Part shown: piece after piece, positions 4,584 to 38,530 of the stretch
How positions within the stretch are numbered: position 1 is the first letter of the stretch
Layout of the letters: the number at the start of each line of letters is the position of its first letter
Assembly (NCBI RefSeq): GCF_046105845.1
Contig: NZ_CP151004.1
DNA length: 64,000 nucleotides
Direction: 5' to 3' (one strand)
DNA from: Escherichia coli
GTDB lineage: Bacteria; Pseudomonadota; Gammaproteobacteria; Enterobacterales; Enterobacteriaceae
Translations under genes and position numbers: made by a program
Notes under the pieces: generated by a model
The model's database searches: none
Told to the model about the DNA's origin: nothing
Seen by the model: the letters and a program-made list of their open reading frames with translations, nothing else

Positions 4584-4659
4584 TCCTCTGTAGTTCAGTC
4601 GGTAGAACGGCGGACTGTTAATCCGTATGTCACTGGTTCGAGTCCAGTCAGAGGAGCCA
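4584..4659 (+). tRNA. asnW: tRNA-Asn (GUU)
   Basis: Exact match to the 76-nt tRNA-Asn on the + strand; inverted relative to asnU. Confidence 0.93.
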
Positions 4660-19907: not shown

Positions 19908-19983
19908 TGGCTCCTCTGACTGGACTCGAACCAGTGACATACGGATTAACAGTCCGCCGTTCTACCGACTGAACTACAGAGGA
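19908..19983 (-). tRNA. asnT: tRNA-Asn (GUU)
   Basis: Exact reverse complement of the 76-nt tRNA-Asn; about 24 nt of its 5' flank are identical to the asnV 5' flank. Confidence 0.93.
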
Positions 19984-20974: not shown

Positions 20975-21064
20975 GGAGAGATGCCGGAGCGGCTGAACGG
21001 ACCGGTCTCGAAAACCGGAGTAGGGGCAACTCTACCGGGGGTTCAAATCCCCCTCTCTCCGCCA
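20975..21064 (+). tRNA. serU: tRNA-Ser (CGA)
   Basis: 90-nt sequence ggagagatgccggagcggctgaacgg...ctctctccgcca with long variable arm, CGA anticodon and CCA end; divergent from mtfA. Confidence 0.9.
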
Positions 21065-27071: not shown

Positions 27072-27923
27072 TTAACCCGCGTAAGCTGCCAGCATTTCCT
27101 GCGCCGCCAGTTTACCCAACGCATTCGCTGCGAAAGGACTGTCGCCGGTGAGAACTTTACGGTCCTTATGTACTCGCCCGGTGATGTCGTCATTAATGAT
27201 GTTCATGCCCATTTTCTTCAGCTCTTCGCCGAAGTACCAGGTGAGATGACCCGGCATATAGCCTATCTCTGGCGTTTGTTTGTCTGCGGCGTCTGGGAAT
27301 GCGCAAATGGAATAACCATTCAGTGGGTTATCGCCGTGGCGAAGCGCCAGAAATGCCGCCGGGCCGTGGCAAAGGGAGATAACAAAACGGTCATTTTTGA
27401 TTGCCCACTGTAAAGCGGCAGCCACGTCCTGGCTTTCTGGTAAACCAATAAGTGCGCCATGACCACCAGGAACAAAGATTGCTGCATATTCGCTGTCAGC
27501 GTTGAGGCTGGCGACAACATCCGCGAGTTTCTTCGGATTGCGGAACAACGATTTATGCTGCTCAAAGAATGGCATTACTTTTTCATCTTTGTGTGGCATA
27601 GCCCAGTATTCAAACTTGGTCATCAGACCGGAAATGGTCGCCACTTCGAATTCGAAACCTGCAGCATGGAGATGATACAACGGCAGCAACGTTTCAATCG
27701 GATGGTTACCGGTCGAGAACAGTTTCCCGTTATCGGTCGGCAAATAACGTTCGTCCGCGGCGATCACCAGAATTTTATGTTTACCGCGATACGGTTTTGG
27801 ATAGTCCACGCCATCAAGATCAGAGACAGGACTGGTATATTGGCTAAGCGAATATTCTGAAGGGAAGAATGCATTATCTTCAGCAATATCGACCTGCGGA
27901 TTTTTACTTGTTTGAACAGTCAT
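27072..27923 (-). CDS. hchA: Hsp31 glyoxalase / protein deglycase (DJ-1/PfpI superfamily), 283 aa
   Basis: Protein MTVQTSKNPQVDIAEDNAFFPSEYSLSQYTSP recognised as HchA. Confidence 0.9.
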   Translation of the reverse strand: MTVQTSKNPQVDIAEDNAFFPSEYSLSQYTSPVSDLDGVDYPKPYRGKHKILVIAADERYLPTDNGKLFSTGNHPIETLLPLYHLHAAGFEFEVATISGLMTKFEYWAMPHKDEKVMPFFEQHKSLFRNPKKLADVVASLNADSEYAAIFVPGGHGALIGLPESQDVAAALQWAIKNDRFVISLCHGPAAFLALRHGDNPLNGYSICAFPDAADKQTPEIGYMPGHLTWYFGEELKKMGMNIINDDITGRVHKDRKVLTGDSPFAANALGKLAAQEMLAAYAG

Positions 27924-28436
27924 AGTGTATTCCTTATTGTTGCTTAGTTAGGGTAGTCACTATATTTGCGACTGAGCTGGTCGCTATTTTTAACCAGTCT
28001 GGAAAATTGAGTCAATATATCGAAAGCGGTAGTCGGCGGGTGTAAGTATGTAATGATGATGCTGCACTGGTGTTGAATATTATTCACGCCAAATTTTCCT
28101 TATTGAACAACGTCGTCGCAAGTGGCCTCAATGATTTTAGACCATTATCAGAGGTCCGGGGCGGCAGGGAGAGATTTAGTGCTGTGGAATATTGTGGTGC
28201 TGATGAATATTTATATCGCGGATTGGTAGAGAAAAAGCTTTTTTCATGCACTATTTTTGCAAATATTCCTATATGGACGGCGGTTTTGTTGCGGATTAAT
28301 TCATAAAGAAATGCATTTGGGTGTTGGCTGGAAGAGACGCTGGTAGATTTTATTGAGCCAGGGGGGCGGGGTAAGGTGCTGTATCGATATGCTTTGGCAA
28401 TTGCGTGTGCCGCAGATGGAGATGAAATGCCAATAA

Positions 28437-28475
28437 AAAAGCCTGAGTTCGATGAGGGACGAACTCAGGCTGGTG
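28437..28475 (-). terminator. Rho-independent terminator of yedS
   Basis: Perfect 11-bp inverted repeat gcctgagttcg/cgaactcaggc; on the minus strand it is followed by a T-run just after the yedS stop. Confidence 0.65.
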
Positions 28476-28513
28476 TTAAGTTTTACAGTAACACGCCGCG
28501 GCGCGTTGGCTGA

Positions 28514-29707
28514 TTAGAACTGGTAGACTAAGCCCACAGCAACGATATCATCGGTAGCGATGCCGTTAGCTTCGTAGAAGTCGTCGTCGTTGTCCAGCAG
28601 GTTGATTTTGTAATCAACATAGGTGGACATATTTTTGTTGAAGTAGTAGGTCGCACCGACTTCAACGTATTTAACCAGATCTTTATTGGTGTAACGCGGA
28701 TCGCCATTACCGTCATGAGCCCAACCGCCTAAATCCTTCCCTTTAGATTGCAGGTAAGCGATGGACGGGCGCAGGCCGAAGTCGAACTGATACTGAGCAA
28801 CAACTTCAAAGTTTTGGGTTTTGTTCGCAATACCACCTCTGTCAATGTCGTTATTGTCTTTTCCGCTGCCATATGCAGTCATATTACGTGTTTCTGCATA
28901 CATTGCCGCTAAATAGACATTATTCGCATCATATTTAGCACCGACTGTCCATGCTTCAGCTGTTTCACCACCAGCATATTTATTCGAGCGTTGCTCACCT
29001 AAACCAGTAGCACGTTGGTTATCAGTACGGTCAGAGTTTGAATATGCAGCCCCGAGGCTTAACCCGAAGTCAAAGTCATAGGAAGTGGACATACCGAAAC
29101 CGTCACCATTTTCTTTAGACAGTTTACGATTATTACCATTACCAGAACCTTCTTGATCCCAAAGCCCACCCGATCCTTCATTATTACCCTGATATTGCAG
29201 AGCAAAGTTCAGGCCATCGACCTGACCAAAGAAGCCATTGTTACGGTAGGTTGCAACACCATTAGCACGACCGTTCAGGAAGTTGTCGGCACCAGCATAG
29301 GTATCGCCACCAAATTCTGGCAGCATATCGGTCCATGCTTCGATGTCATATACGACACCGTAGTTACGACCATAGTCGAAAGTACCATTCTGACCAAAGC
29401 CTAAACCTGCAAATGCCAGACGCGTTGCGGTATTACCTTTGTCGCTTTCAGGACCGTTTGCGCCAATGTTAAATTCCCACTGACCATAACCAGTGAATTG
29501 GTCAGCGATCTGAGTTTCACCTTTGAAACCGATACGGGCATATGACATGTCGCCATCGCTGCCAGCATCATCAGAGAAGTAGTGCAGGCCCGCTACTTTT
29601 CCGTACAAATCCAGTTTATTACCATCTTTATTATAGACTTCAGCCGCATTTGCTGCGCCAGCAACTAATAACGCCGGGACCAGCATTGCCAGAACTTTTC
29701 TTTTCAT
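28514..29707 (-). CDS. yedS: OmpC/OmpF-family general porin YedS, apparently intact (about 397 aa); I recall it as a split pseudogene in K-12
   Basis: ORF 28514..29737; start placed at [21 protein letters not shown] (signal peptide); aromatic-rich beta-strand composition ending in a terminal F typical of porins. Confidence 0.8.
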
Positions 29708-30018
29708 TATGTATTCCCTTGTGATTATAATCTTCATGAATATATCAATAAGTGCCGTTATCCAAAAAAAAGCACATTTGGATACTATTCTATGAAGTTC
29801 ATTTTATTTTAAAGATTACATGTAACAAATGTATTTAAAAGATTTCAAAATGTTTCTAATCTATTTAATATAATTCAAAATTATGAATTCTAAATATAAA
29901 TATTCATGAAAATTATAAATGTATATCAATATGTTATGAGTTGAGCGGAAACATAGGAGGTATCAATGATTGTTGCGCCAAACGGCTGGTGTGATCACGC
30001 GCACATTAATGAAGACAT

Positions 30019-30110
30019 AAAAAAAGCCGGCATCATGCCGGCCCAAAAAATATAAACAAGACGATAAAAGGCTAATAACGGAGGCATCATGACACAGAAT
30101 AATAAAAAGG
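30019..30110 (-). ncRNA. rseX: Candidate small RNA, probably RseX, ending in a strong intrinsic terminator
   Basis: Minus-strand hairpin gccggcatgatgccggc followed by seven T's with no protein gene upstream on that strand; I recall RseX mapping to the yedR-yedS intergenic region; 5' end approximate. Confidence 0.4.
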
Positions 30111-30272
30111 TATAATTGTAATCAGTGCTAATATATTGATTGAATGAATTAATAAAGCCGATATCAAAGATAAATAAAATCGCTCAAAACGATTTATCCT
30201 GTACTCACTGCCGTTGCGCAAAAATTATCTATTTGTTCAAAAAATGATTGAGTCTTGACTGGCTCATCCAAT

Positions 30273-38443: not shown

Positions 38444-38530
38444 AACACATCAGATTTCCTGGTGTAACGAATTTTTTAAGTGCTTCTTGCTTAAGCAAGT
38501 TTCATCCCGACCCCTCAGGGTCGGGATTTT
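38444..38530 (+). ncRNA. dsrA: DsrA small regulatory RNA (rpoS activator, hns antisilencer)
   Basis: Sequence aacacatcagatttcctggtgtaacgaattttttaagtgcttcttgcttaagcaagtttcatcccgacccctcagggtcgggattttttt matches DsrA as I recall it, including the terminator; lies between yedP and yodD. Confidence 0.85.

Follow-up and report, generated by a model that had tools for sequence, protein, structure and literature searches.

A complete porin reading frame at the yedS locus of Escherichia coli, with conserved flanks and a mature-porin region that varies among strains

Besides OmpC and OmpF of Escherichia coli, the OmpC/OmpF family of outer-membrane porins has minor members in other genera, among them OmpK37 of Klebsiella pneumoniae and OmpS1 of Salmonella enterica. 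The regulatory region of OmpS1 is AT-rich, like that of E. coli yedS; it is repressed by H-NS and StpA and activated by LeuO and OmpR, and by analogy the same control might extend to E. coli yedS. One study describes Salmonella ompS1 as a quiescent porin gene, repressed by H-NS and activated by LeuO. In E. coli K-12, the yedS gene (b4496; formerly b1964-b1966) is a pseudogene. In other E. coli the situation may differ: papers citing Warner et al. (2013, AAC 57:1935) credit that work with linking active yedS, together with marR inactivation, to carbapenem resistance, and one of them reports that a carbapenem-resistant clinical E. coli expressed a functional yedS. That isolate, like the DNA considered here, had an intact, translatable yedS in an E. 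coli other than K-12. The carbapenem link of intact YedS, which a sequence-only reading of our locus had mentioned, thus exists as a published one, as seen through these citing papers. Here we compare with the described systems the yedS locus of an E. coli strain (assembly GCF_046105845.1, contig NZ_CP151004.1), contained in a stretch of 64,000 nt that was analysed as a whole and is referred to below as the window.

The minus strand of the window holds, at 28514-29707, one unbroken frame of 397 codons followed by TAA, as both the listing of open reading frames and the translation show. The ATG is at 29707 and the TAA at 28514-28516, and this terminal stop is the only one in the translation, which has neither an internal stop nor a frameshift. 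The sequence-only reading had described a complete OmpC/OmpF-like porin gene with a signal peptide and its own terminator, and the description holds: its coordinates are exactly those of the coding sequence, mature OmpC chains from the PDB align from residue 22, behind a signal peptide of 21 residues, and a hairpin lies 43 nt past the stop codon (the hairpin proper at 28471-28440, minus strand, then TTTTTATT). We prefer the start at 29707 because of the spacing of its Shine-Dalgarno-like sequence, because the RefSeq start of the 1194-nt gene in strain WP8-S17-ESBL-12, a 99.9%-identical genome, is its equivalent, and because of the alignment with the OmpC and OmpF precursors. A longer version starting at 29737 (407 aa, ten more residues) was rejected; it is without a ribosome-binding site and differs from the RefSeq start. 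The features of the locus and of the rest of the window are collected in Table 1.

Table 1. Features located in and around the yedS locus and elsewhere in the window
Feature	Position	Strand	Basis and remarks
Four tRNA genes	355-427, 2763-2835, 4584-4656, 19911-19983		Rfam, identical scores
Longer tRNA gene	20975-21061		Rfam
hchA, one flank of yedS	27072-27923	-	Gene neighbourhood
Intrinsic-terminator-like hairpin	28430-28471	-	Hairpin search; 12-bp stem with 7 G-C pairs, 8-nt loop, then TTTTTATTGG
yedS CDS, general diffusion porin precursor	28514-29707	-	Open reading frame, Pfam, NCBIfam, PDB alignment, synteny with K-12 yedS
Signal-peptide coding part of yedS	29645-29707	-	Residues 1-21, cleavage before AEVYNK; alignment to OmpC/OmpF precursors and mature PDB chains
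AT-rich upstream/5' region of yedS	29708-30018	-	26.7% G+C versus 48.6% for the window; ~98% identical to K-12
Shine-Dalgarno-like AAGGGAA	29714-29720	-	8 nt 5' of the yedS ATG; direct sequence reading; same in K-12
CRP-type palindrome TAATGTGCGCGTGATCACACC	29988-30008	.	Spacer changed at one point compared with K-12
rseX small RNA gene	30019-30108	-	Same strand as yedS, 311 nt upstream of its ATG; Rfam RF01401, 99 bits versus gathering score 50; annotated in MG1655
DsrA small RNA	38444-38529	+	Rfam

The gene order in the window, dcm-yedJ-drpB-rseX-yedS-hchA, is that found around yedS in K-12, with the same orientation relative to hchA, rseX and drpB and with yedS transcribed away from drpB. 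The flank opposite hchA consists of rseX, then drpB/yedR, yedJ, dcm and vsr. Wherever the flank present on the contig suffices, the order dcm-yedJ-drpB-(rseX)-yedS is kept in other strains and species too, including E. albertii, E. whittamii and Escherichia sp. The product of rseX is an Hfq-binding small RNA; the gene has a terminator-like site of its own (30044-30024), and we found no evidence for co-transcription of rseX with yedS. Over 1551 nt the window locus shares 91.8% nucleotide identity with that of K-12, and it is this syntenic locus that MG1655 annotates as yedS (b4496), pseudogene. The putative orthology of yedS with Salmonella ompS1 rests on naming, since one paper equates the two and YedS alleles appear in some database entries as 'outer membrane protein S1'. 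Taken together, we regard it as highly probable that the window gene is an intact yedS (ompS1), a third OmpC/OmpF-type general diffusion porin gene, and that the pseudogene of K-12 and B represents decay specific to that lineage, not the norm of the species. As to the RNA genes elsewhere in the window, the four equal-scoring tRNAs are presumably asn tRNAs and the longer one serU, an assignment that fits the 2.00-2.06 Mb region of K-12.

The encoded protein matches the Pfam family Porin_1 (PF00267) over the full profile, positions 1-337 of 337, with 478.1 bits against a cut-off of 23.7 (E = 2.3e-143). It also exceeds the cut-off of the NCBIfam OmpC subfamily model (543.8 versus 484) and scores below the cut-offs of both the OmpF and the PhoE equivalog models of that collection. 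The best 120 homologues listed for it are E. coli and Shigella YedS alleles only. Among solved structures the closest is OmpK37 (PDB 6v78; E = 4e-147, end to end), followed by OmpK36, OmpC and OmpF. OmpK37 resembles YedS in being a minor porin of the family and is 64% identical to it in the Foldseek alignment, again end to end; it comes, however, from another genus, and loops L4, L5, L6 and L7 are longer in the window protein. Identity is 66% to K-12 OmpC and 63% to K-12 OmpF, which are themselves 65% identical to each other. With these two porins YedS shares the fold, the core of the signal peptide, the constriction residues and the C-terminal signal, whereas it is encoded at another chromosomal locus, has longer loops L4-L7 and is presumably far less expressed.

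Alignment identifies a cleavable N-terminal Sec signal peptide ending in A-x-A, which is identical across eight aligned comparator alleles. The constriction loop L3 is conserved (PEFGGD, with D106 and E110), as is the basic cluster facing it (K16, R37, R75 and R126), and all ten constriction positions that were checked are identical in YedS, OmpC and OmpF (K16, R42, R82, R132, Y106, D113, E117 and G119-G120-D121 in OmpF). The protein ends in GLVYQF and so has the aromatic C-terminal beta-signal. A model predicted with AlphaFold2 from 14 aligned sequences, of low confidence (mean pLDDT 55.7), was used only to delimit strands and loops and to check consistency; it has 16 strands and a Foldseek TM-score of 0.75/0.84 to 6v78. 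A beta-barrel topology is thus borne out by the strands of this low-confidence model and by the end-to-end alignment to 6v78 and other porins. As far as sequence can tell, then, the precursor has all the features that mark a functional general diffusion porin. If YedS follows the OmpC/OmpF family, it would be exported through Sec and cleaved by signal peptidase I after ANA, and the BAM machinery would, by way of the C-terminal Phe, assemble it as a trimeric pore of the outer membrane. The L3-constricted channel would then allow passive entry of small hydrophilic solutes, beta-lactams and carbapenems among them.

That yedS is fragmented in K-12, as the sequence-only reading had it, is correct: alignment located two lesions in the MG1655 pseudogene, and the window is free of both. 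One is an amber codon (CAG to TAG) at codon 162, the other a single T missing from GCATATTCAAAC, near nt 666 of the gene. The gene is identical, at a length of 1193 nt, in MG1655, in the K-12 derivative EC600 and in BL21. Strain EC-07 is one base off K-12, having CAG at codon 162 and keeping the 1-nt deletion; since it carries the deletion alone, the frameshift came first in the K-12/B lineage and the amber codon second. A conceptually repaired K-12 YedS is 91% identical to the window protein. The 413 nt upstream are ~98% identical between the two, and the -80 to +30 region and the signal peptide do not differ at all, whereas the blocks coding for L4, L5 and L6 are at 40-80% identity per 60 nt. 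Because these blocks differ as well, the window allele is not simply a repaired version of the K-12 gene.

To place K-12 and the window among other E. coli, we ranked genomes by similarity to the window locus and picked 20 at regular intervals; yedS is intact in 15 of them. The five disrupted copies are those of K-12, BL21, EC-07, O157:H7 (Z1833, with a frameshift of its own) and strain 35 (interrupted by IS1A). Judged from these sequences, yedS is a gene that has been inactivated independently at least three times, namely in the K-12/B lineage, by the O157:H7 frameshift and by IS1A in strain 35, and this recurrence of natural inactivation shows that the gene is dispensable. When species-representative genomes were scanned for the coding pattern of the yedS signal peptide, ten yedS loci were found, among them those of E. 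albertii, E. whittamii, two Escherichia species, Citrobacter amalonaticus and C. sedlakii, and every one of the ten had a complete frame. Public data contain the exact window protein on at least 1000 contigs, where it is named 'porin OmpC'; others in its cluster at 90% identity go by 'putative outer membrane protein YedS'. Since an intact yedS is usual in natural E. coli and its relatives, it is K-12 and not the window that is the exception; what the window contains is an already known gene in its common intact state, whose identical protein is already in public databases.

Whether such a gene is used depends on its expression. The AT-rich region at 29708-30018 is probably an H-NS-silenced promoter region. 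Pairs of sigma-70-like hexamers lie upstream of yedS at 29828-29801 and 29894-29867; promoter-like matches in the upstream region are not more numerous than in shuffled sequence (9 versus 6.9 +/- 2.9). The in vitro CRP footprint that one K-12 report assigns to yedS falls on a site conserved in the window at 29988-30008. In another K-12 study, rseX is undetectable in the wild type and derepressed only without H-NS and StpA, and a further source has the K-12 yedS transcript fall upon sigmaE induction. The AT-rich upstream region and the H-NS/StpA silencing of the adjoining rseX in K-12 together suggest that yedS may be poorly expressed in standard culture. YedS would then matter chiefly once silencing lifts or once OmpF and OmpC are both lost. 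An effect of YedS is said to have been seen in just such a background, a marR mutant without OmpF and OmpC, and control of YedS that depends on MicF and MarA has reportedly been described. Our duplex search with MicF covered the yedS region from -80 to +30, where the best pairing of the MicF 5' region reached -8.7 kcal/mol and 274 of 300 shuffles did as well or better; the positive control, MicF with ompF, gave -27.4 kcal/mol (z = -4.75), a value reached by none of 300 shuffles. As the duplex is no better than shuffles, the effect of MicF on yedS, if any, would not run through ompF-like pairing at the start codon, and we propose no direct MicF site at the translation start of yedS; regulation that is indirect or acts at a more distal site is possible.

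A different picture of the locus emerges when strains are compared along its length. The interval from hchA to drpB was taken from nine comparator strains and compared with the window, with identity scored in 60-nt blocks of the alignment. The flanks of the porin, at 27924-28519 (including the terminator) and 29600-30257 (including the signal peptide, the 5'UTR, the AT-rich region and rseX), are 81-100% identical per block, mostly at least 90%, and the terminator blocks at 28400-28519 are 92-100% identical in the nine strains. Over the mature porin, at 28520-29600, nucleotide identity goes down to 17-80% per block in several strains. The conservation across strains of promoter region, 5'UTR, signal peptide and terminator argues that yedS is a maintained and usable gene. 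At the protein level the alleles span 352-404 aa, and two E. coli classes, that of ST131, W and P21 and that of C-SRM-3, are only ~60% identical to the window YedS; both C. sedlakii YedS (81%) and the OmpC paralogue (66%) are nearer to it. Twelve yedS-locus sequences were aligned, namely that of the window, seven comparator alleles and four proteins from databases; pairs of them share on average 33-46% identity in L1, L2 and L4-L7, compared with 77% in the strands and 81% in L3.

Among 5426 complete E. coli genomes, 42 carry an allele at least 99% identical to that of the window, which is therefore uncommon. The window yedS DNA is one synonymous base off (99.9%) at least 34 complete E. coli genomes among the matches listed. 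Megablast finds a match over at least 80% of the window coding sequence in 1661 of the 5426 genomes, so that the class to which K-12 and the window belong is a minority. The comparison also suggests that some strains may have had the yedS locus deleted, and that the window allele may be shared across backgrounds by recombination. Several further observations were made with the same genomes. For the segment at 20000-44000 (24 kb), the best match among the 5426 genomes is 98.8%, versus 99.9% for yedS. With the 1551-nt locus as query, megablast gives no match in about 530 of the 5426, and in strain MLI104K2 the match is confined to 41 nt about the stop codon, a place where no gene is annotated; 33 of the places matching the locus query are on plasmids.

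A metagenome-assembled genome labelled 'Collinsella sp. Map_57_008' has two short contigs with different yedS alleles, of 371 aa and 365 aa, and hchA is also present on one of the two, which points to contamination of this bin by more than one strain of Enterobacteriaceae. The allele of 365 aa represents a further class, 73% identical to the window protein. One group marks the host source of isolates with the intergenic region between yedS and yedR. Among 35 papers with open-access text that mention yedS we found no account of behaviour as an allelic cassette.

Two alternatives concern what the gene is. RefSeq/PGAP labels it 'ompC: porin OmpC', and could be taken at its word, given that the NCBIfam OmpC subfamily model is above its cut-off and that RefSeq names the syntenic gene ompC in many genomes. 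That model, however, describes a subfamily and is not an equivalog; the gene stands between hchA and rseX/drpB, whereas ompC of K-12 adjoins micF and rcsD some 280 kb away; its 66% identity to K-12 OmpC is about the distance between OmpC and OmpF (65%); and MG1655 calls the syntenic locus yedS. Synteny and identity together rule out OmpC proper, the orthologue of K-12 b2215, and we give the ompC reading practically no credence: the RefSeq label at this locus is a family-level name derived from a subfamily HMM. Within the locus, PGAP gives 'ompC: porin OmpC' to the long-loop alleles and plain 'porin' to those of 352-371 aa. It could also be supposed that the frame is open and the porin nevertheless non-functional, owing to missense changes or to disruptive insertions in the loops, since L4-L7 exceed their counterparts in OmpC, OmpF and OmpK37 in length. 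This is very improbable, given that all the constriction residues checked, PEFGGD and the terminal YQF are conserved, that the identical protein is found on at least 1000 contigs, and that E. albertii, E. whittamii and Escherichia sp. also have alleles of this long-loop class.

The alternative of most substance leaves the protein as it is and questions whether it is ever made: the gene might be intact yet quiescent, never producing meaningful amounts, in which case its intactness would be without phenotype. Several facts would fit, namely the 26.7% G+C of the 311 nt upstream, the adjacent rseX that is undetectable in wild-type K-12 and derepressed only without H-NS/StpA, the quiescence ascribed to Salmonella ompS1, the repeated natural loss of yedS, and serum antibodies to K-12-derived YedS in only one of 141 healthy people, as given in a serological report. 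Nevertheless, strong diversification of the surface loops goes together with 85-100% identity per 60-nt block in the promoter region, the 5'UTR, the signal peptide and the terminator, a combination expected only if selection acts on the protein at the cell surface. Moreover, yedS is intact across Escherichia species and Citrobacter, and the clinical isolate of Warner 2013 had, according to a citing paper, a functional and expressed yedS. On balance we find permanent silence possible, yet doubtful. That YedS is expressed in nature can be argued from the other side as well, because variation in the loops and repeated loss both fit a surface protein under selection by phages, colicins or the immune system. 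Carried further, yedS might be a replaceable cassette with at least four to five divergent classes of mature porin, subject to balancing selection driven by phages, colicins or immunity and to replacement between lineages, and the window allele might be a rare specificity type; we offer this only tentatively.

For E. coli biology, the intactness of yedS in the window adds little that is new, being common in wild E. coli and their relatives; its allelic diversity is the more interesting aspect and might merit a population-level look. The sequence-only reading had called the status of this allele phenotypically relevant. A published precedent favours that view, but the relevance would be conditional on the porin and regulator background, and the upstream region suggests poor expression. 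There are practical consequences nonetheless. Genomes in which two genes are called ompC could mislead automated calls of porin loss. An intact yedS is a third general porin and could still admit carbapenems and other beta-lactams after the loss of OmpF and OmpC; prediction of resistance from the status of ompF and ompC alone could therefore err, because an intact yedS may supply a porin.
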